Source of the DNA: Candidatus Thorarchaeota archaeon
GTDB taxonomy: Archaea; Asgardarchaeota; Heimdallarchaeia; Hodarchaeales; Hodarchaeaceae
Direction of reading: 5' to 3'
NCBI GenBank assembly: GCA_048882505.1
Contig: JBHLRO010000018.1
Coordinates: 1-24,000, forward strand
DNA: 24,000 bases
The notes under the pieces are model-generated. The model did no database searches, was not told the DNA's origin, and saw only the letters and a list, made by a program, of their open reading frames with translations. The translations under genes and the position numbers were made by a program. The stretch's first letter is position 1. Every line of letters begins with the position of its first letter. Of this stretch, positions 346 through 16,275 are shown piece after piece.

Positions 346-366
346 AACGATCAGGTGGTCAAGCGT

Positions 367-930
367 ATGAGCTTCATTGCGAAACTGAGAGCAAAACTCG
401 CCAAAGAAAAACTCAGCGTCAAGATCGCCTGGCTGGGGTTGGATCATGCGGGAAAGACCACTATTGTTAAACGTATTACCTCTGGAATTTTTGATAACTC
501 AACATTCAGGACTCTCGGTATGAATGTCGATGAATTCACATCTGGTAATGTTAGATTCATATCATGGGATATAGGTGGGCAGGAAGCCTTTAGAGAGAGT
601 TTATGGGAGAGTTACATGGCGGGATCCATGGGGATAGTGTATGTAATTGATAGTGCGGACAGACATCGCTTTTTCGAAGCAAAAGAAGAGCTTTGGAAGT
701 ACGTTTTGGATAACGATAAGGTAGAGAACATTCCTATCTTGGTATTGGCGAACAAACAAGACTTAGAACATGCAGCATCGGCGGGAGAGGTTGCAAGAGC
801 CTTAAATCTACACAGAGTGACCACACATTCGTATGCAATTGTACCGACATCAGCAAAAACAGGCTTCAATGTTGAGGAAGGCCTAGAGTGGCTGCGACAG
901 CGAGTTACCGAGAAGTTGGATACGCTTTAA
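367..930 (+). CDS. Arf/Arl/Sar-family small GTPase (Asgard-type Arf-related)
   Basis: Motifs seen: GLDHAGKTT (Arf-type P-loop), WDIGGQEAFR (G3), LANKQDL (G4) and TSAKTG (G5), after a short amphipathic N-terminus (MSFIAKLRAKLAKEKL). It is alignable along its length with eukaryotic Arf1 as I remember it. The ORF track starts at GTG 355. I prefer ATG 367, which has AGGTGG 8 nt upstream. Confidence 0.9.
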   Translation: MSFIAKLRAKLAKEKLSVKIAWLGLDHAGKTTIVKRITSGIFDNSTFRTLGMNVDEFTSGNVRFISWDIGGQEAFRESLWESYMAGSMGIVYVIDSADRHRFFEAKEELWKYVLDNDKVENIPILVLANKQDLEHAASAGEVARALNLHRVTTHSYAIVPTSAKTGFNVEEGLEWLRQRVTEKLDTL

Positions 931-960: not shown

Positions 961-1752
961 TTAACGGCTTTTCCGAGTTGCTATCCTTTCTGAAACGAAG
1001 TTGACTCGGCTGCAGAGTGCTATAAAGAGGTCATACATCCGCCTAAGATCCAAGGACTCATTAATGAGCGAATAGATTCTAATCGTTGGGTCGTCGGCAG
1101 AATCAATAGAAATCCGCACCAGTCCTTCTCGATTGTTGTAAATAGACTTAAGCAGATCTTTGTCACCAAGGAGAAAGAGACCGCTCTTCTGAGAAGTAGC
1201 TTTAATCAAAAAATACTCATCTAGGCTGGGAACGTTGAGAGTGATTGTATCAAGAGTGAATAACAGATCCTGATGCTTTCGGATTTGCCCTTCCTCCTTT
1301 TTTGGGATGATTTGAAGTTTTGTTTGGATTTTTCCTTTCTTGGCATTAGCTTCCAAAGCGATATAGTCCTTGGCTCCTGAAAACCATGAAATGATGACAG
1401 ACAACATCAGATGGCGTTCTTCCAGCGCAAAAACTACCCGAAAGTCTTTAAAAGGAGGTGAATAAGATCCTTTATAACGGGGAATTAGGAGGCCTCCATT
1501 GGAGGAGAGTTGGTCTACAATTAAGTCATCAAACTCCTGAGAGAACACATCAAGTAATAATTCACGATTTTTCTCAACGATTTTGTGGTTTTTTCTTCTG
1601 CCAGCCCAGAGCAAGTAGAAAGTATAGAATAGAATTAATGCAGGACCGATTAATGGGAGGACGAGATCCAACCAAGAGTAAGAGCCCGTCTGAAGGAAAA
1701 ATTGGCTCAGATTTTGAAAGAATTCCATCACTAGGTAAAAGAACGCCATCAT
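961..1752 (-). CDS. Hypothetical membrane-anchored protein (one N-terminal TM helix, ~200-aa soluble region of unknown fold)
   Basis: A 263-aa ORF with an ATG-ATG start. It has a hydrophobic helix LDLVLPLIGPALILFYTFYLLWAG followed by RRK. I recognise no motif in the remainder. It is co-directional with the JAMM gene and starts 45 nt downstream of it. Confidence 0.55.
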   Translation of the reverse strand: MMAFFYLVMEFFQNLSQFFLQTGSYSWLDLVLPLIGPALILFYTFYLLWAGRRKNHKIVEKNRELLLDVFSQEFDDLIVDQLSSNGGLLIPRYKGSYSPPFKDFRVVFALEERHLMLSVIISWFSGAKDYIALEANAKKGKIQTKLQIIPKKEEGQIRKHQDLLFTLDTITLNVPSLDEYFLIKATSQKSGLFLLGDKDLLKSIYNNREGLVRISIDSADDPTIRIYSLINESLDLRRMYDLFIALCSRVNFVSERIATRKSR

Positions 1753-1797: not shown

Positions 1798-2340
1798 TCA
1801 CGGGGCGCTTTCTCTAATGTAGCTAGCAACCTCTTGCGCACGGAAGGGTCTTTTCTCTTGTTGCCCCACAACTTGGTAACATTGAAACACGGCCCGTCCG
1901 TTGCTTTCAATCTGGGTGGGATCAATAACCAAAGCAACAGATAACGCTTGGTGCAGCTGGAAGGAGTAGATATGGGTGGAAATATCAGTCTGGGACAGGA
2001 ATAGGCCGTACCCGGGATGTGAATGCCACCAACCCACACAATGGAGATCTTCCTCGAGAAGCTGTTCAAAGGAAGAAAAATCATCTTCGGAAAATTCAAC
2101 TGAGGTCTCATCACCTTCAGTGACAAACAGAAGTCTAGTGATGAGGAGTTCGTTGGTACGGAACTCTTTACCACCAAGGAGTCCAATGGCTTCACGAGGG
2201 ATTGCCTGCTGGGCGTGTTGAGTCATTTTATCTAAAAGGGAACCCAGAAGGGTAATTGATGAAACTTGGGTTTCTAATTGGATCGGCAGTTCTCTCGGAT
2301 CTTCCGATTCTGAACGGTTCGTTAAGTTCCTTTTTGGCAT
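1798..2340 (-). CDS. JAMM/MPN+ metalloprotease (Rpn11/CSN5-like deubiquitinase candidate)
   Basis: The complete JAMM signature is present: an upstream Glu (PREAIGLLGG) and HSHPGYGLFLSQTD, which equals H-x-H-x7-S-x2-D. ATG start. It begins 27 nt downstream of the E2 gene on the same strand. Confidence 0.9.
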   Translation of the reverse strand: MPKRNLTNRSESEDPRELPIQLETQVSSITLLGSLLDKMTQHAQQAIPREAIGLLGGKEFRTNELLITRLLFVTEGDETSVEFSEDDFSSFEQLLEEDLHCVGWWHSHPGYGLFLSQTDISTHIYSFQLHQALSVALVIDPTQIESNGRAVFQCYQVVGQQEKRPFRAQEVASYIRESAP

Positions 2341-2367: not shown

Positions 2368-2913
2368 CTAGGAGGAAGCAAATTTTTTGGTCCAAGTGAC
2401 CGCCTTGTTCCAAAAGGTGCTGAAATCCTCTTTCATTTCTTTACCAGCATCAGGATTAAAGGGATCATTTGGATCAACTAGGTATTCTGGAAAATCGTTC
2501 GTTCCAGCTGTTTGATAGACTTCTAACATCATTTCTAGATGTTCAAACACGCTCGGGAGGGTGATGGTTTCTTTCCAGCCTCCAGTCTGTCCGAGGTTAT
2601 TCCAATTCACTAGACTTAAACAGACATTAGATCCCCATTTCCATCGTGTTTCCCCTACCGCAATGTTCGGATGATAAATCTGAGTAACGAAATTACAAAT
2701 AGGAGGTTTAAAAGGATAGCTGGGAGGCAATTCTACAGCGATTTCCCAGGTTCCACCTTCATAAGGAGTTCCTTCTCGGCCCTTGACCCAGGCTCTATAC
2801 TGATGCAGATCATTGTTTACGATTTTCCATTGTATTGGGCTCGATTTAGGAGGATAGACTTTGAGCATCCTCTTGAACTCTTCTCTTAGGCGTCTTGAGT
2901 GTAAATCCTGCAA
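2368..2913 (-). CDS. Ubiquitin-conjugating enzyme E2 (UBC fold, HPN triad and catalytic Cys present)
   Basis: Motifs seen: YPFKPPICNFVTQIYHPNI...GSNVCLSLV...GW..TITL...DPNDPFNPDAGKE...W. This is the canonical UBC order: YPxxPP flap, HPN, active-site Cys, then the C-terminal DPNxxxP helix region. The start is TTG at 2913, and there is no in-frame ATG that would retain the N-terminal helix (RRLREEFKRM). Confidence 0.9.
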   Translation of the reverse strand: MQDLHSRRLREEFKRMLKVYPPKSSPIQWKIVNNDLHQYRAWVKGREGTPYEGGTWEIAVELPPSYPFKPPICNFVTQIYHPNIAVGETRWKWGSNVCLSLVNWNNLGQTGGWKETITLPSVFEHLEMMLEVYQTAGTNDFPEYLVDPNDPFNPDAGKEMKEDFSTFWNKAVTWTKKFASS

Positions 2914-3379: not shown

Positions 3380-4171
3380 ATGGCAGCGCTAACTGAAGTA
3401 AGTACCTGTAACGGCTGTGGGGCTCCTCTTCCTTTCAGACCAACAGCTGGGCAGGCGGTTAAATGTGAGTACTGTGATTTGACTAACTATTTGAAGAGAT
3501 CCGTAGCCCCTGCTGAAGTCGAACAAGGTTTGGATGAAGCGATCGAATCTGAAGTATATTACCAGATATACCAAACTGCTCAAGAGATTCTGGAAAATTT
3601 CCCAGGAGAGTATGTTGGTGATGAGATCGGCAAGCTCAGGATTAAAATGCAGGTCGGACAGTACGCTTTTACCCTTCTTCTTGTATTGGATGACCTACCA
3701 GATCGCCCCTATATTGACGGTCCAGCCAAATTACGTGAGATTTTAGATTGTGAGATGACAGAGCTAGAATCCATGAAAGAATGGCGACCTGGGGTAAGTT
3801 CCGTTTTGGAGGTGTTAGAGGAGATCCATCGCCGTGCCTCGGTCGCACTTCCGGAAGCAATGGGTGAGAGTCTAGCTTCAACTACTGGAGTGGTTCCAAC
3901 TGATAGAAAAGAACGGGATCCTCTGATTCAGAAGATTCTAAGTAATTATGATGCATCTGTTTCTAAAAAGGAGATATTAATTAGATTTTACGCGGAAACG
4001 GGCGATGTTATTAACTTTACCATTAAAAGGAAGAAGAATTTCCCTATTGGTCTTGAGAGCGAAATCCTTGCAAAATATCCGCTCATCCGTGGTCCCTTGG
4101 AGGATTATGCTAAAGGTCGAATTGATCTCCTGCAAACATTATCAGAAATTGAACGTTTATTATACGTTTAG
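3380..4171 (+). CDS. Zn-ribbon protein with a possible divergent UBC/UEV/RWD-like core (function unknown)
   Basis: ATG start. The N-terminus has CNGC-x15-CEYC (a four-Cys ribbon). Further on, YAFTLLLVLDDLPDRPYIDGPAKLREILDCEMTELESMKEWRPGVSSVLEVLEEI resembles the E2 pattern of YPxxPP flap ... C ... W-x-P-x-h-x-x-VL, but it lacks the HPN triad. It is the first gene of the plus-strand Ubl-E1 run. Confidence 0.55.
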   Translation: MAALTEVSTCNGCGAPLPFRPTAGQAVKCEYCDLTNYLKRSVAPAEVEQGLDEAIESEVYYQIYQTAQEILENFPGEYVGDEIGKLRIKMQVGQYAFTLLLVLDDLPDRPYIDGPAKLREILDCEMTELESMKEWRPGVSSVLEVLEEIHRRASVALPEAMGESLASTTGVVPTDRKERDPLIQKILSNYDASVSKKEILIRFYAETGDVINFTIKRKKNFPIGLESEILAKYPLIRGPLEDYAKGRIDLLQTLSEIERLLYV

Positions 4172-4266
4172 AAAAGGTACAAAGGTGAGTTTCGATTAGC
4201 AAGAAAAAAGATGTGGTCTGGGATTCAGGCTCAAAACGCGCGCCCTCCTCTGAGGGTATTGAAAAA

Positions 4267-4518
4267 ATGATCAAAGTTCGATTCAAGGATCCTCAATTGC
4301 CGCCTGATCAAAATGTCAAGGAGAAATATGTAAATCTGCAAGGAAATGTGTTTCAAGCAATTTCAGCGGCGCGCGATGCATTTAATATTCCTGAGGTAGT
4401 GCCCATCGCCCTATTGTATAAGGGACGTCGGTTAAATCCCTCGAACACCTTGAGTTCATATGGAATCGAGCAAAACTCGATGTTGATGATCGTCCCCGAC
4501 CAGATTAAAGGTGGGTAA
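4267..4518 (+). CDS. Ubiquitin-like beta-grasp modifier ending in Gly-Gly-stop
   Basis: MIKVRFKD...LLYKGRRLNPSNTLSSYGIEQNSMLMIVPDQIKGG*. The C-terminal half parallels ubiquitin ([34 protein letters not shown]). The codons are ggt ggg taa at 4510-4518. The ORF track starts at GTG 4213. I prefer ATG 4267, which gives 83 aa and matches the beta-1 strand start. Confidence 0.85.
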   Translation: MIKVRFKDPQLPPDQNVKEKYVNLQGNVFQAISAARDAFNIPEVVPIALLYKGRRLNPSNTLSSYGIEQNSMLMIVPDQIKGG

Positions 4519-4602: not shown

Positions 4603-5844
4603 GTGGAATACCAAATGATGACGGACTCTAGGGCTTCAAGGTATGATCGCCAAGAACGTCTTGTATTATGGGATCAACGGCTTATATCAAACTCTTGTGT
4701 CCTCATAGCAGGTGTTGGGGGAACCGGCAGCGAAGTAGCGAAAAACCTGGCACTTCTTGGAATTGGGAGGCTCATCCTAGTGGATCAAGATACAGTGGAA
4801 TACTCCAATCTCAATCGACAAATGTTGTTTAGCGAGAAGGATGTTGAGAAACGAAAGGTTGTTGCAGCGAAGCAGAACATAGCGGAGAACTTGAATCCTA
4901 ATCTTGAAATTGATATTCATAGCCAAACCCTCCAATCGATACCACAAAGGGTGTTTGAGGAAGTTGACATTATTGCAGGTTGTATAGACAATTTTCTGGG
5001 TAGACAATTTCTGAATGCACAAGCCATTGAACTGTACAAACCCTATATCGATTCTGCTACTGACGGTTTTTTTGGACAGGTTCAGTATGTAAAACATGAA
5101 ACCTCAGCATGCCTAGCATGTGATAATCCACTGCCGCCCGAAGAATTCCAGATTCTTACTGAACCGTGTACTTTAGTTGGGGTACCACGCATCAGAGAAC
5201 ATTGTGGCTGGAAGGCCTTATACGATTTTAATACAGCCTATCAACGGATGCCAGATGAGAATTCAACGGAGGAGCTAGCTTGGCTAATTGAGCGGGCCAA
5301 TCGCTATGCTGTCGAGTATAATTTCGGGCAATTTGAGAAGATGGAGCTTCTCCAGATGATACTCTTCCATGTTCCAAGTCTTGTGACCGTCAATGCTGTT
5401 ATTAGTGGCATTCAAAGCCAGGAAATCGTTAAGGCCCTTTTTCTCGAAAAGAAGTCTCAACTGAATAAGGATGAAAGAGCTACACTTGAGAGATTGCAGA
5501 AGGGTAATCGATACCGGATTCCCCATCTTACAATTTACTCTGCGTTGACTGGAACCGTTAATTCCTTCGATCTTGTCCCTGATCAAGAATGTTTAGTTTG
5601 TGGGTCATTATCTACTTCACGAAAAAAGCTAGCTGAGATCCGTGTAAGCAGGAACTCATTATTTCAATCCGTATTGGAAAAAATGGGTTATAGAAATCAT
5701 ACTGAGTACATCGGATTTCGAGGAAATTATCACATTCCAGAAGATGTAACCCTAGGGGAGGTTCTTTCTGATGGTGATCGGATCACGTTGAGTTCAATAA
5801 ACAATGACAATGAACTACGGTTGAAAGTTCGGTTTATTGACTAA
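4603..5844 (+). CDS. E1-like ubiquitin-activating (ThiF/MoeB/UBA-family adenylating) enzyme with a C-terminal beta-grasp-like extension
   Basis: RYDRQERLVLWDQRLISNSCVLIAGVGGTGSEVAKNLALLGIGRLILVDQDTVEYSNLNRQMLF is the classic Rossmann/nucleotide motif of the family. Two CxxC pairs are present (CLACD and CLVCG, a structural Zn site). The C-terminal ~70 aa (…LGEVLSDGDRITLSS…LRLKVRFID) looks beta-grasp/UFD-like. The start may be GTG 4603 or ATG 4615/4618. Confidence 0.9.
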   Translation: MEYQMMTDSRASRYDRQERLVLWDQRLISNSCVLIAGVGGTGSEVAKNLALLGIGRLILVDQDTVEYSNLNRQMLFSEKDVEKRKVVAAKQNIAENLNPNLEIDIHSQTLQSIPQRVFEEVDIIAGCIDNFLGRQFLNAQAIELYKPYIDSATDGFFGQVQYVKHETSACLACDNPLPPEEFQILTEPCTLVGVPRIREHCGWKALYDFNTAYQRMPDENSTEELAWLIERANRYAVEYNFGQFEKMELLQMILFHVPSLVTVNAVISGIQSQEIVKALFLEKKSQLNKDERATLERLQKGNRYRIPHLTIYSALTGTVNSFDLVPDQECLVCGSLSTSRKKLAEIRVSRNSLFQSVLEKMGYRNHTEYIGFRGNYHIPEDVTLGEVLSDGDRITLSSINNDNELRLKVRFID

Positions 5845-5882: not shown

Positions 5883-6233
5883 TTAATCGTCTGTTTTCGA
5901 GGGAATAAAAACTTTGATCTTCTTCCGTTCCTTAGGTTGAATTACGGGTATAGGGGGGTTAATATATGGTTTTTTATATCCTAACTCGGGTTCTACTGTA
6001 TCTTGCTTACCGAGCGAGGCAAGTTTATCGTAAAGCTGACTATAGATCTTATCCTTGGAGGGCTGTTGTTGATTGGATTTTTGAATAGGCTTGGAACGTT
6101 GATATCTCCTAGGTTGGGAAACGACATTGGCCTTCCCACAGCGAGGGCAAAACCAACGACCAGAAATCGGTTTATCTCTGGGAACATGACCACAATGTCG
6201 ACATTGTAAAGATTCTTCATTCTCTGGATTCAC
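5883..6233 (-). CDS. Small Zn-ribbon protein with a Lys/Pro/Gln-rich low-complexity tail (unknown function)
   Basis: CRHCGHVPRDKPISGRWFCPRCG (CxxC-x15-CxxC) at the N-terminus, followed by ~85 aa of polar low-complexity sequence. GTG start. It is a stand-alone gene, convergent with E1 and divergent from the 588-aa gene. Confidence 0.45.
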   Translation of the reverse strand: MNPENEESLQCRHCGHVPRDKPISGRWFCPRCGKANVVSQPRRYQRSKPIQKSNQQQPSKDKIYSQLYDKLASLGKQDTVEPELGYKKPYINPPIPVIQPKERKKIKVFIPSKTDD

Positions 6234-6425: not shown

Positions 6426-8192
6426 ATGATTTTCACAAACAGAGCCAAACGGTGGCTCTCTAAAGCACAGGCAACTGAAATTCCTCTTTTATTACCACAA
6501 GAAGACCGTACCGGGATTGCCGAGTTCCTGAGAGAAAAAATCGAAGCCAATGAGGTCTTTGGTATTGTTACTCCAGATGATACTACTTTCTTCCCTGATA
6601 AGTATATTGAACAAAACCTACGGCTCCAACTCCAAAAGCAGGGCTTCATTGACATCTGTGCTTTGATTGACCTGACCCAAGGTAAACTACCTGGGCGGAT
6701 ATTGGAATTGAAAATTCTGGCGCATGTCCAGGAAATAGATGGGTTTTTGGACATTATTTTTCGACGTTTTTTCACACCGCAGGGGGCAGAAAATTTCTTG
6801 AAACAATATTTAGCGAATAAGACCGTTGTGCCCTTAAAAACGATTTTGAATGACCTGTATTGGGGAGAAGACTACGTAGAAGCCATTTTAGACCTTCTAT
6901 CCGAGAAAAACCTTTTCCGTGGATACCTTGATCCAATTAAACAGCGATTATATAATTTTACAAACCTGAATTTCACTTCAGAAGTTGATCGGGAGAAGGC
7001 GAATAAGCAGCTAATTCGCTATATCAAGAGAAGCTTTCAACTGGGCGCCGAAGTAGCTATCAGTGATATTTGTGGGTTGACGGGATTTTCCCAAGAAGAG
7101 AGTATTCGTTTCCTGCAGAAAAATCGTGGATCCCTTAGTTTTGTGATTTCAACTAAGCGAAATTATGTATATCCCACTTTAGAGATCGTAATCAATATTT
7201 TGAGAGATCTTATTGTCTATCGAAAAGTTCCAATTGCATTCTGGGAACAGCGGCTTGATGTGGCAAAAATCGAGCTTTTAGGGCTATTACGAATCTTGAA
7301 TGGCAGCTTGAATGGCCAAATTTCGCCAACTACCTATTCAGGCCCTCTCCTACGCGAATGGTTTCGGAACGGTATTGATATCGAGGGATTGGCTGCAGAT
7401 CTAAATCTTGATCCCCTTCTTCTCCTCGGGCGCATCCGAACACTGGGAGAAAAATACGGATTAAGATTCATTGCGGGCGATACGGCCAATCCCTTTCTCC
7501 TCAAGGGCGTCCTAAGTTTCGAGATTTTTTGTCAGGTGGATACTTCTTCTTATCAAGATCCACATCTGTATTTTGAGTGCCAAAACTGTAAGCGAATATT
7601 GTGTAGCAATTGCAGGTCGGCGGGAAGCAAGCATAGCTGTCCTTTTTGTGAGAACATAGCGGCGTTCATTATTGATCTTCCACGGCACTGCCCTGATTGT
7701 AAGATTACCTACACGCATTCTTACAACCTAATAAGTACGGAAGAATGCTATTTCTGTAAAAAAGGCCCTTTGGCGAGCGGGTGGTTACCACCAAAGCCAA
7801 TATCCGATAAGCTCCTGGATCCCCATCTTTCAGAATTATTAGCTCATTCAGATTCAGAAATCCCATTGCAGGCGATAATTTCGACTTTGGGATGGTCTGA
7901 TGCAGAAGTAGTTGCCCATCTTGAAGAAATGATTATTTCTAACCAAATCAATGGCAATATCGACATATGGAATACTTCCCTCCGTCTTGAGCGAGCGCCC
8001 ACCTTGTTTCGTTGCAGTGTTTGTGAAAAACTTAAGACAGATAAAACTCGGTATAAATGTGTATCATGTAGCAATAACGTTTGTCTAACATGCCATGGTG
8101 ATATGCATACAGTAGGAATGGTTATCTGTCCCCAATGCAGTGGAGAGTTAAAACCAGAGGACTCTGGTACGTCATCTTCGAGTCAGGATTAG
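6426..8192 (+). CDS. Multi-winged-helix repeat protein with two Cys-rich Zn clusters (second ZZ-finger-like); function unknown, E3/adaptor candidate
   Basis: A 588-aa ORF with an ATG start and GAGGA upstream. Segments of the PCI/WH type recur at least six times, for example VVPLKTILNDLYWGEDYVEAILDLLSEKNLFRGYLD, VAISDICGLTGFSQEESIRFLQK...LSFVISTKRNYVYP and IPLQAIISTLGWSDAEVVAHLEEMIISNQINGNID. Cys cluster 1 spans aa 385-444 (nt 7578-7757) and has five CxxC pairs. Cys cluster 2 spans aa 530-571 (nt 8013-8138): CSVC-x11-(RYK)CVSC-x4-CLTCHGDMH-x8-CPQC. Confidence 0.7.
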   Translation: MIFTNRAKRWLSKAQATEIPLLLPQEDRTGIAEFLREKIEANEVFGIVTPDDTTFFPDKYIEQNLRLQLQKQGFIDICALIDLTQGKLPGRILELKILAHVQEIDGFLDIIFRRFFTPQGAENFLKQYLANKTVVPLKTILNDLYWGEDYVEAILDLLSEKNLFRGYLDPIKQRLYNFTNLNFTSEVDREKANKQLIRYIKRSFQLGAEVAISDICGLTGFSQEESIRFLQKNRGSLSFVISTKRNYVYPTLEIVINILRDLIVYRKVPIAFWEQRLDVAKIELLGLLRILNGSLNGQISPTTYSGPLLREWFRNGIDIEGLAADLNLDPLLLLGRIRTLGEKYGLRFIAGDTANPFLLKGVLSFEIFCQVDTSSYQDPHLYFECQNCKRILCSNCRSAGSKHSCPFCENIAAFIIDLPRHCPDCKITYTHSYNLISTEECYFCKKGPLASGWLPPKPISDKLLDPHLSELLAHSDSEIPLQAIISTLGWSDAEVVAHLEEMIISNQINGNIDIWNTSLRLERAPTLFRCSVCEKLKTDKTRYKCVSCSNNVCLTCHGDMHTVGMVICPQCSGELKPEDSGTSSSSQD

Positions 8193-9079
8193 CTGAGTTG
8201 GCTCTTATATTGCGCTAACTTCTTGGAGTACTTATCAGATAGTTCCTTGTATTTATCTTCTGAAATCTTCCCATTAAGGAACATTTCATCTGCTTGTTCC
8301 ACCATGAGTTCATATTTCTTGATTTTCTCTGCAATGTCATCAAACTGTTCTCGCTCTTCTGCCAAAGATCGCTGCTGTTCTAGAACCTGTTTTTCTACTT
8401 CATATGCCAGCAGAGATTGATACTCATCGGGAACCTTAAATCCCCCTATATCCAGTCCAACAAGTTCCAAGCCCCAGCGAGAAGTCTCAGGACCCAATTC
8501 CGCACGGGTCTGGATTTCAAGGCTGCGTCGTTCTCTCAATAATTCCGGAACTGTGTAACGGGACATCACATGCTTGACGGCCCCAATTATGGTTTGTTTC
8601 ACCCAGTTCTTTAGTTCCTCGCTTGAATAATACTGCCTGTGAGAGACTACATTTGAAATGAAATTTCGGGGATTAACTATCCTCATTCGGGAAATTCCGT
8701 AACAACCTATCATGACATTGTCTGCGGATAAAATCCCAGGCGTTCCCCATCTGATAACGAATTCTCGTTTACTTACCCAGATTATTTCGCTACCCGGGCG
8801 TTTTGCTAGCTTATCCAGTTCATATATTCCACTTCCTGCAACACCTACCAGTGTACCCGACTGTAGAAGTACAGCATTTTCAGGATCTTTGACAATAAAG
8901 CCATCATCTTTACGGAAACCATCTCGATCGTCAGAACGAACTCGTGAAACTAGCGAACCTCCATTCTCTTCACTAAAATCAGAGCTTAAGATGGTTTTTC
9001 CACGAAATCTTTTGGAACCAAGGTGTACTGCGTCGCCAATCCTGCGGAACAATCCCCCGAATTTCTCGACTTCTGTCAT
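8189..9079 (-). CDS. SPFH/Band-7 superfamily protein of the YdjI-like (Band_7_1) type with a C-terminal coiled coil
   Basis: The pattern ...AVLLQSGTLVGVAGSGIYEL...IIWVSKREFVIRWGTPGIL...GCYGISRMRIVNPRNF...WGLELVGLDIGGFKVPDEY matches the soluble YdjI/COG4260-type SPFH domain as I remember it. A heptad-rich tail follows (EQQRSLAEEREQ...KYKELSDKYSKKLAQYK). The ORF track starts at TTG 9091, overlapping the EAP30 stop. ATG 9079 lies 5 nt after that stop. Confidence 0.65.
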   Translation of the reverse strand: MTEVEKFGGLFRRIGDAVHLGSKRFRGKTILSSDFSEENGGSLVSRVRSDDRDGFRKDDGFIVKDPENAVLLQSGTLVGVAGSGIYELDKLAKRPGSEIIWVSKREFVIRWGTPGILSADNVMIGCYGISRMRIVNPRNFISNVVSHRQYYSSEELKNWVKQTIIGAVKHVMSRYTVPELLRERRSLEIQTRAELGPETSRWGLELVGLDIGGFKVPDEYQSLLAYEVEKQVLEQQRSLAEEREQFDDIAEKIKKYELMVEQADEMFLNGKISEDKYKELSDKYSKKLAQYKSQLS

Positions 9080-9084
9080 CTTTT

Positions 9085-10053
9085 TCACCAATCATCGCCA
9101 TAAAGGCCAGGAAAGTAGTACTGGTATCCCGAATCAAGAGAGGAAACTTTTCTTGCAATCTTTTGCTTAACTAGACCTTCCAAGACTCGTATCACACGTT
9201 GCTGTTCCCATTTTGTGTTTAAAACAACATCTTCAAGTGTAACAAAACCTTTGTCAACTGCAAGACTAAAAACGCGTTCAGCATCTTTACCCAATGAAAC
9301 GGGTACAAATTCAACGATTTTGACCCCTGAACGTTCTGAAATGCCCTCGATCAGTGATTGTTTCTGCAGATTTTTACACGCGTTTTCGATGTCCTTGACA
9401 GAGAACTTCACATCAGGAACCTGATCTTTTAGTGCGGTATAAAGGTTTGCAAGAGAAATATAGCCTCCGGAACTTGCGCGCAGATTTTTTCCATATTGGA
9501 GAACTAAATCTGAGATTTGGTCTCTAAATTTGCCCCTACCAAACAAACGGGGTCTTTCAGTTGCATCTAGCGCTGTGATTGTTAAAGCCCTACCTTCCTT
9601 ACGTAAAAGTTCTCTTTCAAGTTGCTGGATCCGCGTATCATAACGCTTTTGAAGATCCCTGATCTGTTCAGTCGAAACGCTGGCGCCATCGGCCAATTTT
9701 TGCTGAATATGGATTACTTCCCCCAAGCGAGCGATATGTTCACCAATTTCCTTTATGGTATTGCGGACCTCAATTCCTTCTTCACCAAAATCAAGATCTT
9801 CTGCTAGCTTTTGTGACTGTTCTGCAATTCTTTCACAGAGCACCGAGGCCAATAATTGGGCTACTCGAATTTCGCCACTTGTCTGGAGATCGGACTTGGT
9901 CTGGTCAGGATGAAGAATAAAATCAGGTATTGTTTCCGAACTGTAACGGATTTCTTCAAATTTCGTAAATAGATTCATAGAAATATCCGCAGCACTTCGG
10001 GCTTTTGTTGAAATACTATTGTTTAAGGCAATTAACGCCTTATTTGCCTTCAT
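9085..10053 (-). CDS. ESCRT-II-type EAP30 domain protein (Vps22/Vps36-like) with a long N-terminal coiled-coil region
   Basis: The C-terminal ~165 aa reads GGYISLANLYTALKDQ...SVKDIENACKNLQKQSLIEGISERSGVKIVEF...GFVTLEDVVLNTKWEQQRVIRVLEGLVKQKIARKVSSLDSGYQYYFPGLY. This is the tandem winged-helix EAP30 pattern, including the terminal Y-x-FP. The ORF track starts at TTG 10092. ATG 10053 (MKANKALIAL...) is preferred. Confidence 0.85.
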   Translation of the reverse strand: MKANKALIALNNSISTKARSAADISMNLFTKFEEIRYSSETIPDFILHPDQTKSDLQTSGEIRVAQLLASVLCERIAEQSQKLAEDLDFGEEGIEVRNTIKEIGEHIARLGEVIHIQQKLADGASVSTEQIRDLQKRYDTRIQQLERELLRKEGRALTITALDATERPRLFGRGKFRDQISDLVLQYGKNLRASSGGYISLANLYTALKDQVPDVKFSVKDIENACKNLQKQSLIEGISERSGVKIVEFVPVSLGKDAERVFSLAVDKGFVTLEDVVLNTKWEQQRVIRVLEGLVKQKIARKVSSLDSGYQYYFPGLYGDDW

Positions 10054-10255
10054 AAAATACTCTTGCAACGCTCTGAATCTCCAGAGGATCAAGTCTTTTT
10101 ATTCGATCAAAGCGAGTCCCTGCTTTCATCCTTAAAAACCTTGGCTTCTAGTATTGAAAAGCTGCTTTTCGAGGGAATTCCCAAACAAATATTAGCCCCC
10201 TCAAGAGATTGACCACGTTCTATCGTGGGAAAGAGAAATATTCCGAGTTTTACTA

Positions 10256-14089: not shown

Positions 14090-14584
14090 TTGATCGACCC
14101 GAGACGATTTGATACGGTCTTAAGCAAAATCATTAAGAGTGAGCCTGGTATTAAAAAGGTCATACTTGTAGATCGGACAGGGCTAACAATTGCTCATGCC
14201 AGCAAGTATGATTATGCCTCAATAGATGTGGATGGGATCGGGGCCATTGCCTCAGCTGTGTTCATGGCCTCCGCAGAACAAGGCTCAAATTTAACCATCG
14301 GAGGATTAGGAATTGTAACCTCTGAATTTGATACAGGAAAAATCTTTGCGTCTTCATGTGGGAAAGGCATACTAACCCTGATTTCGGATGCGGAAGTCAA
14401 TATCGGGATGATTCGTCTTTTGATGCGGCAGGCCAATGATGAGCTTGCTAGTACCTTAGATGAGTTTTTAGCAGGAAAACCCACGAGAGTACCCTCTAGT
14501 GGGATGACAGCGGCCCCTGAGGTTCGTACTAGCTTGGAAAAGGATGAACTCGAAGCAGCTTTGAGAGAACTGGAGAAATTTTAG
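14090..14584 (+). CDS. mglB: Roadblock/LC7 domain protein (MglB-like)
   Basis: ...GIKKVILVDRTGLTIAHASK...IGAIASAVFMASAEQGSNLTIGGLGIVTSEFDTGKIFASSCGKGILTLISDAEVNIGMIRLLMRQA is the typical Roadblock alpha-beta-alpha pattern, followed by an acidic C-terminal tail. TTG start with GGAG upstream. It lies immediately upstream of the MglA-like GTPase. Confidence 0.8.
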   Translation: MIDPRRFDTVLSKIIKSEPGIKKVILVDRTGLTIAHASKYDYASIDVDGIGAIASAVFMASAEQGSNLTIGGLGIVTSEFDTGKIFASSCGKGILTLISDAEVNIGMIRLLMRQANDELASTLDEFLAGKPTRVPSSGMTAAPEVRTSLEKDELEAALRELEKF

Positions 14585-14612
14585 ATCATTCTGTGTAGTG
14601 GTCAGATGCCAC

Positions 14613-15197
14613 ATGGTTAGAAAGGATGCGGAAGGACGTCAGCGTTATAAAATAGTATTTTACGGCCCCTCGCTAGGTGGAAAAACTACCACCCTAAGAT
14701 GGTTGTACGATCAGGTAGATGGGCTCGATAAAGGAAAATTTACTCAATTAGCTGATCCTACGGGGAGAACCCTCTTCTTTGATTTTGCACCCATGCAGGC
14801 TACAACGGGCGTGGTTTTTGATGTATATACGACTGCCGGGCAGGATCGGCACAAAAGCCAGCGAAAAATAGTAATTCAAGGTGTAGATGGATTAATCTTT
14901 GTGGTCGATTCCTCCAAATCACAGCTCGAAGAAAATCTCGCCTCTATCAGTGAACTGCGTGCACATGTTGGAGATAAGCTCGGAAAAAGCATTCCAATGG
15001 TCATTACACTGAATAAAAGGGATGTGCCGGATGCATTACCTCGTTCTGAGTTGGTCGATATTCTTAAGCTTACGCAATTTCCGATATATGAAACAGTTGC
15101 CACGACAGGCATTGGAGTCAAGCGAGCTTTTCAATCATTGGCACGGGAAATTATAATGATCCAGCTCTACGGAACGAAAGATTCCCAGGTTACTTAA
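14613..15197 (+). CDS. mglA: MglA-family small GTPase
   Basis: Motifs seen: KIVFYGPSLGGKTTTLRWLY (G1), GRTLFFDFAP, VYTTAGQDR (G3), GVDGLIFVVDSS, TLNKRDVPDA (G4) and TVATTGIGV (G5). They are collinear with M. xanthus MglA (KIVYYGPGLCGKTTNL / DRTLFFDFLP / LYTVPGQ / GVDGVVFVADSQ / YNKRDLPNA / AVAPTGVGV). The track start is GTG 14598; ATG 14613 is preferred. Confidence 0.88.
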   Translation: MVRKDAEGRQRYKIVFYGPSLGGKTTTLRWLYDQVDGLDKGKFTQLADPTGRTLFFDFAPMQATTGVVFDVYTTAGQDRHKSQRKIVIQGVDGLIFVVDSSKSQLEENLASISELRAHVGDKLGKSIPMVITLNKRDVPDALPRSELVDILKLTQFPIYETVATTGIGVKRAFQSLAREIIMIQLYGTKDSQVT

Positions 15198-15870: not shown

Positions 15871-16275
15871 GTGTACATACCCGATGCCGAGGCCGATCAA
15901 GCGGTTCATAAGGAAATCAATGAAGTTCTAGAGGCTTTTGTGAGTAAACTCCCGGCAATAGACTTTGCCAGTGTTGTGTCCCTAGAGGGGTTGCCCATTT
16001 CGTCATTCCCACCCACATTACCCAATAATCTAGATGATGTCCGAGTAGCAGCAATGACAGCAGCAATCCTTAGCTTAGGAGAACGCGCAGTCATGGAAAC
16101 AAATAAGGGGGAAATGTCAAAAATTTATGTCGAGGGGGAGAACGGGTACTTGATTTCGGTTCAAAGCGGTAGTAAAGCAGTATTAACCGCATCTGCGAAT
16201 AAATCTGTTAAATTGGGTCTAATCTTTTTAGATATGAAACAAGCCGCGAAAAAGATCGGGGAGATTTTGGGTTAG
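15871..16275 (+). CDS. Roadblock/LC7 domain protein (second copy)
   Basis: INEVLEAFVSKLPAIDFASVVSLEGLPISS...VRVAAMTAAILSLGERAVMETNKGEMSKIYVEGENGYLISVQSGSKAVLTASANKSVKLGLIFLDMKQAAKKI is a canonical Roadblock pattern. GTG start, preceded by a ~400-nt spacer. Confidence 0.8.
   Translation: MYIPDAEADQAVHKEINEVLEAFVSKLPAIDFASVVSLEGLPISSFPPTLPNNLDDVRVAAMTAAILSLGERAVMETNKGEMSKIYVEGENGYLISVQSGSKAVLTASANKSVKLGLIFLDMKQAAKKIGEILG

Follow-up and report, generated by a model that had tools for sequence, protein, structure and literature searches.

Ubiquitin conjugation encoded by a single operon is known from Caldiarchaeum, where the genes for ubiquitin, an activating enzyme (E1), a conjugating enzyme (E2), a small RING ligase (E3) and Rpn11 lie together (PMC5654768, PMC3082918). 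Amongst the non-catalytic relatives of the E2s, ubiquitin is bound by the ELF domain of FANCL (PMC4543658), which also has a central UBC-RWD domain (PMC3173227), and by the UEV domains of Asgard Vps23 (PMC9192718; 10.1101/2023.07.25.550441), and SUMO conjugation is enhanced by the RWD protein RSUME (PMC9068994, PMC3585135). We report the computational analysis of a gene, here called X, in a 24,000-nucleotide stretch of DNA (the window; positions 1 to 24,000 of contig JBHLRO010000018.1) from a Candidatus Thorarchaeota archaeon of the Hodarchaeales. X adjoins the genes for a ubiquitin-like protein (Ubl) and an E1 in at least three lineages, and its product is an Asgard-archaeal protein without earlier annotation that comprises a zinc ribbon and two inactive copies of the E2/RWD fold. 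It is probably an E3-like helper or a ubiquitin-binding adaptor and not a second enzyme.

A first-pass annotation of the window had read X as a highly divergent UBC-like module, and structure prediction, structural searches and a chain of profile comparisons now support this. In the AlphaFold2 (AF2) model, residues 53-160 (domain 1) adopt a UBC fold consisting of alpha1, a four-strand meander, the flap, short helices and a long alpha2; the elements by which we recognise the superfamily, namely alpha1, a meander of three to five strands, a proline-rich flap and a crossover alpha2, are all present. Full-length X, modelled from a 37-sequence alignment, has a mean predicted local distance difference test score (pLDDT) of 79.3, and domain 1 modelled alone reaches a pLDDT of 91.5 and a predicted TM-score (pTM) of 0.84 (elements H2-22, E25-27, E34-41, E44-51, flap, E60-62 and H91-110 of that model). 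A Foldseek search with an AlphaFold model had been proposed as the check on the idea, and it found the UBC-like alpha/beta core whose absence was to count against it. Domain 1 aligns with Ubc13 and UbcH5 over about 114 columns with a probability of about 1 (query TM-score (TMq) 0.63-0.68, root-mean-square deviation (rmsd) 2.9-3.8 Å) and with FANCL at TMq 0.62-0.63 and rmsd 3.2-3.4 Å, the matches to FANCL and the E2s together spanning 0.60-0.68; the E-values are modest (about 1e-2) and the top 50 matches are nearly all UBC-fold proteins. FANCL is the best match both of domain 1 alone and of full-length X searched against the PDB (7kzp_L/M; 3zqs_A, the central DRWD domain of FANCL), and lower among the full-length matches come Knl1, which has tandem RWDs, numerous E2s and the Vps23 UEV domain (1uzx).

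Set directly against a small E2 alignment, the profile of domain 1 gave no significant match (hhalign, 1.7%), and the link to the E2s is therefore made through intermediate sequences. A profile search over 1.8 billion cluster representatives gathered the distant relatives of X, amongst them more than 321 Lokiarchaeia proteins of about 550-600 residues with four pseudo-UBC repeats (R1 to R4) and a C-terminal RING-like finger. Domain 1 matches R1, R2 and R3 at 97-99% (hhalign, E 6e-11 to 1.5e-18), R1 passes the gathering cut-off of the Pfam model UQ_con, R4 matches RWD, R4 aligns with E2 at 92% and R1 with R4 at 91% (hhalign), and a PDB search with the profile of this Loki family recovers Rad6 and Ubc13. 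The topology of X is compatible with the RWD model but X does not match it, and the relatives that reach its cut-off (P0069, P0079-P0089) do so via a different repeat. The annotation had also seen the order of UBC landmarks in the stretch Q94-I149, which includes the flap at residues 104-110, C124 and W135-R-P...V142-L...I149. The profile columns bear out the flap and the W-x-P helix, though not the cysteine as an equivalent landmark: P107 of the flap is invariant in the broad family and aligned with the FP..PP or YP..PP flap of R1, R3 and E2, whilst W135, S140, V145 and E148, kept like P107 across the wider family, are nearly invariant and W135 is aligned to the E2 Trp.

What distinguishes a catalytic E2, namely a Cys in the catalytic column, the HPN triad and a UQ_con match above the gathering score, is not found in X. 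The absence of HPN and a short flap-to-Cys spacing were described correctly from the start: the triad is missing by direct reading, its segment is deleted in the R1-to-Rad6 alignment, and the spacing is 14 residues as against 27 in the local E2 and 20 in UbcH5. The cysteine that had been described as retained proves to be lineage-specific. Position 124 is Cys in 66 of 70 close homologues and F, R, N or S in the remaining four, which are otherwise intact, and it is Gly or a gap in each distant orthologue examined (L028, P0067, P0069, P0070, P0073-75, P0212, P0213 and P0216), where the motif at the site reads 'h-I-G-x'. We obtained the catalytic register by chaining the alignment of domain 1 with R1 to that of R1 with Rad6. 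Here W135 is the E2 Trp, L129 the Leu following the catalytic Cys and E128 the catalytic column, and D123/C124 fall at the conserved Gly of 'N-G-x-I-C', which puts C124 about four columns N-terminal of the catalytic column in low-identity alignments with a possible error of one or two residues. The case from the non-conservation of C124 is independent of the register. In the Loki family not one Cys outside the RING is invariant. Judged from these alignments, C124 occupies the right loop, but it is not the homologue of the catalytic Cys and is not required.

The C-terminal half of X, for which a steadiness box or Vps28 had been suggested, is modelled instead as a second UBC/RWD-like alpha/beta domain; the steadiness box and Vps28 are ruled out by the alpha/beta AF2 model and by the lack of a Pfam match. 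The predicted topology is H-E-E-E-(E)-H-H-H with a pLDDT of about 88, hardly any variation is seen in the 'KRKKN-[FY]P' flap or in the segment PLIRGPLEDYAKGRIDLL, and the FANCL/DRWD matches of full-length X extend over about 210 columns. Profile similarity is weak, to domain 1 (E 2e-3) as to R2 (E 6e-4), in the correct register, and direct hhalign comparison with the small E2 alignment was not significant (0.9%).

The N-terminal ribbon is present as first described (CNGC-x15-CEYC; C10-N-G-C13, 15 residues, C29-E-Y-C32). All four cysteines are kept in each of the 63 homologues that cover them and are also retained by orthologues of only 25-27% identity. The two conserved CxxC knuckles on beta-hairpins by which a C4 zinc ribbon is recognised are found in X: AF2 places short beta-hairpins or paired strands here, and the region gives weak Pfam treble-clef and Zn-ribbon matches. 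Within the two linkers, of which the first is modelled as disordered, the pLDDT falls below 50 at residues 40-51 and 164-175.

The status of X as a genuine gene is backed by its conservation in Hodarchaeales homologues. Among 5.8 billion proteins searched there were 66 homologues, 50-92% identical to X; each is named 'hypothetical', comes from Hodarchaeales or a Heimdall metagenome-assembled genome (MAG) and is without a Pfam domain. Pfam scans of whole X and of its three parts returned just sub-threshold zinc-finger noise; even at E <= 10 neither X nor any of its domains taken singly matches UQ_con, and the RWD, UEV, Vps23_core and Vps28 models do not match X. Searches of PDB sequences with phmmer and the family profile gave SUMO2 and an epimerase, which we rejected as chance matches, and nothing meaningful. 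The earlier statement that the architecture could not be placed in a described family holds, since the family is absent from Pfam and no description of it was found in the literature searched: searches for an Asgard FANCL, RWD or zinc-ribbon protein yielded no account of it, and no mention was found in the surveys of Asgard ubiquitin and ESCRT (endosomal sorting) genes that were consulted. The methods of one such survey relied on InterPro signatures, which X does not carry (PMC9192718), a sole Asgard RWD-like sequence is mentioned in PMC6601020, and NHJ00524, UCE13112 and 'RWD' are all absent from the supplement to PMC10936438.

Amongst the distant relatives, P0069, P0073, P0075 and P0077 (about 340 residues) have the same zinc ribbon followed by three repeats. 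The four-repeat Loki family comprises P0081 and its relatives (P0079-P0211; loci L004, 8001-9767, and L005, 8001-9650). Its finger gives weak Prok-RING_1 and RBX1 matches, and its members are inconsistently annotated as 'E2 variant', 'ubiquitin-protein ligase' or hypothetical. Where the surroundings of these RING-bearing relatives were checked, no ubiquitin operon was found; the neighbours are isoleucyl-tRNA synthetase and polysaccharide genes.

X heads the Ubl-E1 operon, as had been noted, and the string of genes is syntenic across Asgard lineages, clearly contrary to the lack of synteny that was to tell against the idea. One detail is corrected: the E2, thought to lie two genes away, directly adjoins X and is divergently transcribed (Table 1). 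We compared the window proteins by tblastn with 21 GTDB species-level loci. All Hodarchaeales contigs of sufficient length carry, in order, Arf, the transmembrane protein, JAB and E2, then, divergently, X, Ubl, E1, the small zinc-ribbon protein Znr, a 588-residue protein, Band7, EAP30 and GNAT, an order that is identical in about 20 species-level genomes; the X locus is 92% identical between the window and L008, a Heimdallarchaeota/Hodarchaeales MAG. One locus (L009) is without an apparent E1 and has a 100-N assembly gap directly after the Ubl gene. An unclassified archaeon (L028), whose X is 37% identical, keeps X-Ubl-E1, and four Ranarchaeia-type contigs carry a compact, co-directional X-Ubl-E1-E2-JAB operon, of which one (L030) is truncated within the gene after E1; the Ranarchaeia are a separate Asgard class, whose label solely L006 bears among the four. 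Here X has 348 residues and is 25-27% identical to that of the window, and the E2 (56-57% identity) and Ubl (52%) indicate that the two systems are orthologous. There is no RING gene in the four operons, and no ESCRT gene in them or at L028. The adjacency of X and Ubl holds in the long-enough Hodarchaeales loci, at L028 and on the four Ranarchaeia-type contigs, and the lone exception seen is L029, a 2.4-kb metagenome contig from the scan with P0069 that is too short to reveal the gene context, where about 680 nucleotides downstream of X hold no Ubl open reading frame (ORF). X is about as well conserved as E1 (58-69% versus 53-60%).

Table 1. Features of X and of its neighbours, in positions of the window.
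Feature	Positions	Strand	Description
ORF X	3380-4171	+	263 residues; zinc ribbon, then two UBC/RWD-like domains (predicted)
N-terminal C4 zinc ribbon	3401-3490	+	Residues 8-37; Cys codons at 3407, 3416, 3464 and 3473
Acidic linker	3491-3535	+	Residues 38-52; poorly conserved (column conservation 0.39)
Domain 1	3536-3859	+	Residues 53-160; minimal UBC fold (AF2)
Flap D-D-L-P-D-R-P	3689-3709	+	Residues 104-110; corresponds to the YPxxxP flap of E2 and RWD
Cys124	3749-3751	+	Lineage-specific; judged non-catalytic
W135-x-P...S-S-V-L-x-V-L-E-E-I	3782-3826	+	Opens the crossover helix alpha2; homologue of E2 'W-S-P...VLLSI'
Inter-domain linker	3860-3919	+	Residues 161-180; variable (conservation about 0.4)
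Domain 2	3920-4165	+	Residues 181-262; second alpha/beta UBC/RWD-like domain (AF2)
Arf-like GTPase	355-930	+	Pfam
Membrane protein	961-1752	-	
JAB/MPN deubiquitinase-like	1798-2340	-	Pfam Prok-JAB and JAB; syntenic
Bona fide E2	2368-2913	-	Pfam UQ_con, 81.6 bits; HPN and catalytic Cys; syntenic at all loci
Ubl	4213-4518	+	Pfam Rad60-SLD and ubiquitin; ends Gly-Gly-stop; directly downstream of X
E1 (ThiF family)	4603-5844	+	Pfam ThiF, 172.5 bits; syntenic
Znr, small zinc-ribbon protein	5883-6233	-	116 residues
Winged-helix/zinc-finger protein	6426-8192	+	588 residues
Band7/SPFH	8189-9091	-	Pfam
EAP30 (Vps22/36-like)	9085-10092	-	Pfam

The neighbouring genes have features of their own. The window Ubl probably starts at ATG 4267 rather than at GTG 4213. 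The Hodarchaeales Ubl terminates exactly at Gly-Gly-stop and therefore needs no processing, and that of L006 (4924-5211) finishes with GGY, from which it follows that its C-terminus is processed, presumably by the JAB enzyme of the operon. The E2 associated with X (2368-2913 in the window; L006, 6473-7045; L007, 3008-3586) has three insertions relative to UbcH5 and Ubc13, one of about 7 residues on either side of the catalytic Cys and one of about 13 between alpha2 and alpha3; they are common to Hodarchaeales and Ranarchaeia and may mark an X-specific surface of the E2. Upstream of JAB-E2, each Hodarchaeales locus carries one or two Arf-like GTPases (two in L001, 6758-8733, L002 and L003) and a protein of 253-284 residues with a hydrophobic N-terminus and no Pfam match (together 355-1752 in the window), which tie the Ubl cluster to putative membrane-trafficking genes. 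Znr combines an N-terminal C4 zinc ribbon with a long basic low-complexity tail and keeps its place between E1 and the 588-residue gene at most loci (36-47% identity; 86% in L008). Further along the window, two Roadblock/LC7-like ORFs around an ORF for a small Ras-like GTPase, arranged in the manner of MglB/MglA, were recognised by eye at 14090-15197 and 15871-16275 (+).

The Caldiarchaeum operon has a small RING E3, and we therefore place X in the remaining slot of the Ranarchaeia-type operon, as its fifth component. Pseudo-E2 modules bind ubiquitin or E2, the enhancement of SUMO conjugation by RSUME acting through its binding of the E2 Ubc9, and with X in the remaining slot an E3-like adaptor or cofactor therefore appears the most likely role. 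Of the three functions that the annotation had put forward, we infer that the E3-like specificity factor is the best contextual fit. We propose that X would be a catalytically inactive accessory subunit of an Asgard Ubl-conjugation system, FANCL-like but RING-less, whose UBC-like surfaces would bind Ubl, the cognate E2 (or E2~Ubl) or both in a non-covalent manner and which, as an E3-like adaptor or E2 cofactor, would stimulate or direct Ubl transfer, with the zinc ribbon supplying a further protein contact. To this reading, an adaptor or cofactor that may bind Ubl and/or E2~Ubl, we give even weight for and against, and less to any specific partner.

Several observations weigh against such a role. 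The ribbon is a single-metal C4 structure and not a cross-brace RING, so that X has no known E2-activating element. The 588-residue Hodarchaeales neighbour, a synteny-conserved protein that has several clusters of Cys and a winged helix of the PCI type, ends in a finger (residues about 526-584) similar to the RING-like C4C4 finger of TFIIH p44/Ssl1 (E 0.005; TRIM RINGs match weakly). This makes the protein a candidate for the E3 of the cluster, and it may be the true E3 in Hodarchaeales. The RING-bearing Loki relatives sit outside ubiquitin operons, and the assignment of domain 2 comes mainly from the AF2 topology and the two-domain match to FANCL. In a bolder form of the proposal, X would serve an archaeal ubiquitin system as an E3 that resembles FANCL but has no RING, or as a cofactor on which the E2 depends; ribbon and tandem pseudo-E2 domains would form a scaffold positioning E2~Ubl and substrate, and the pseudo-E2 modules of eukaryotes (RWD, UEV and FANCL) would have their prokaryotic root in the X family and its RING-bearing, four-repeat Loki relatives. 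This we regard as speculative and on balance doubtful.

Three other functions have to be set beside that of adaptor or cofactor. That X is a second, non-canonical E2 forming a thioester on Cys124, as the annotation had entertained, is very improbable indeed. The residue does lie between beta4 and alpha2 in the AF2 model, topologically the E2 active-site segment, and most close homologues share it, but the idea fails because C124 is neither conserved (it is Gly or absent in all the distant operon-sharing orthologues) nor in the catalytic column; HPN is absent, and a canonical E2 is encoded by the adjacent gene. BRCC45 is a tandem-UEV partner of the JAMM enzyme BRCC36, and X could by analogy be a scaffold of tandem UEVs, like BRE/BRCC45, by which the cluster's JAB/MPN deubiquitinase is assembled or regulated. 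Its tandem UBC-like domains, the JAB gene in each complete cluster and weak Pfam BRE matches in some Loki relatives suit this, but these matches are far under the cut-off and X itself has none; the tightest linkage of X is to Ubl-E1 and not to JAB, which lies on the opposite strand in Hodarchaeales and is missing near X in L028. We consider this reading improbable.

The ESCRT-I-like UEV reader of the annotation would have X pass Ubl-modified cargo to the adjacent ESCRT-II-like (EAP30) and SPFH proteins, as a substitute for ESCRT-I. Its attractions are a UBC fold without catalytic residues, the Vps23 UEV domain among the Foldseek matches, the constant company of EAP30/Vps22-like, Band7 and Arf GTPase genes in the Hodarchaeales cluster and the binding of ubiquitin by Asgard UEVs (PMC9192718; 10.1101/2023.07.25.550441). 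It is weakened, and in our view unlikely, because the Ranarchaeia-type operon retains X-Ubl-E1 without an ESCRT gene, as does L028, and because a separate UEV-Vps23 is encoded in another Hodarchaeia cluster (10.1101/2023.07.25.550441); moreover, X has no stalk, no steadiness box and no Pfam UEV match.

The Hodarchaeales count among the candidates for the archaea most closely related to eukaryotes, and their Ubl system is a model for the rise of the eukaryotic cascade. X is a new conserved component of it, the fifth in Ranarchaeia-type operons and constantly next to Ubl-E1 in about 20 genomes of Hodarchaeales, and it offers a concrete candidate for an E3-like or Ubl-binding factor of Asgard Ubl systems. 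Its existence suggests that non-catalytic UBC folds (RWD, UEV and FANCL-like) began diversifying in Asgard archaea.

Amongst described proteins, the closest structural match of X is the ELF/URD part of FANCL, the E3 of the Fanconi anaemia core complex (ELF, UBC-RWD/DRWD, RING), which like X is built of successive non-catalytic UBC/RWD domains; the FANCL-type layout is complete in the Loki relatives, with their added C-terminal RING-like finger. FANCL nevertheless has three UBC-like domains to the two of X and a C-terminal RING where X has four Cys ligands only, in an N-terminal single-metal ribbon; the relative orientation of the domains differs (rmsd 15-19 Å over both domains), phmmer and profile searches of PDB sequences find no sequence similarity between the two and, unlike FANCL, X is encoded in an archaeal Ubl-E1 operon. 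With the catalytic E2s (Ubc13, UbcH5 and the local E2) X has in common alpha1, the four-strand meander, the P-rich flap and the 'W-x-P...VL..I' alpha2, but its domain 1 is without alpha3 and alpha4 after alpha2, without HPN and without a Cys in the catalytic column. The RWD and UEV modules (GCN2, RNF25 and RSUME; Vps23/Tsg101 and Mms2) are non-catalytic protein- or ubiquitin-binders of the UBC superfamily, and X is likewise non-catalytic; the kinetochore tandem RWDs (Knl1, CENP-O/P), Knl1 being one of the Foldseek matches, share its tandem arrangement. The zinc-ribbon fusion and the operon context of X are not described in these families, and the coiled-coil stalk and steadiness-box hairpin of Vps23/Tsg101 in ESCRT-I are both missing from X. 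The srfp E3 of the Caldiarchaeum and Asgard ubiquitin operons is, like X, the zinc-binding fifth gene of a compact Ubl-E1-E2-JAB operon (PMC5654768), but the two are unrelated in fold and size, a cross-brace RING in the one and a C4 ribbon with pseudo-E2 domains in the other. X is thus a member of the UBC superfamily at the level of the fold and not a catalytic E2, a Vps23/ESCRT-I protein or FANCL proper, and by analogy its mode of action would come closest to that of FANCL outside the RING or of an RWD/UEV module.

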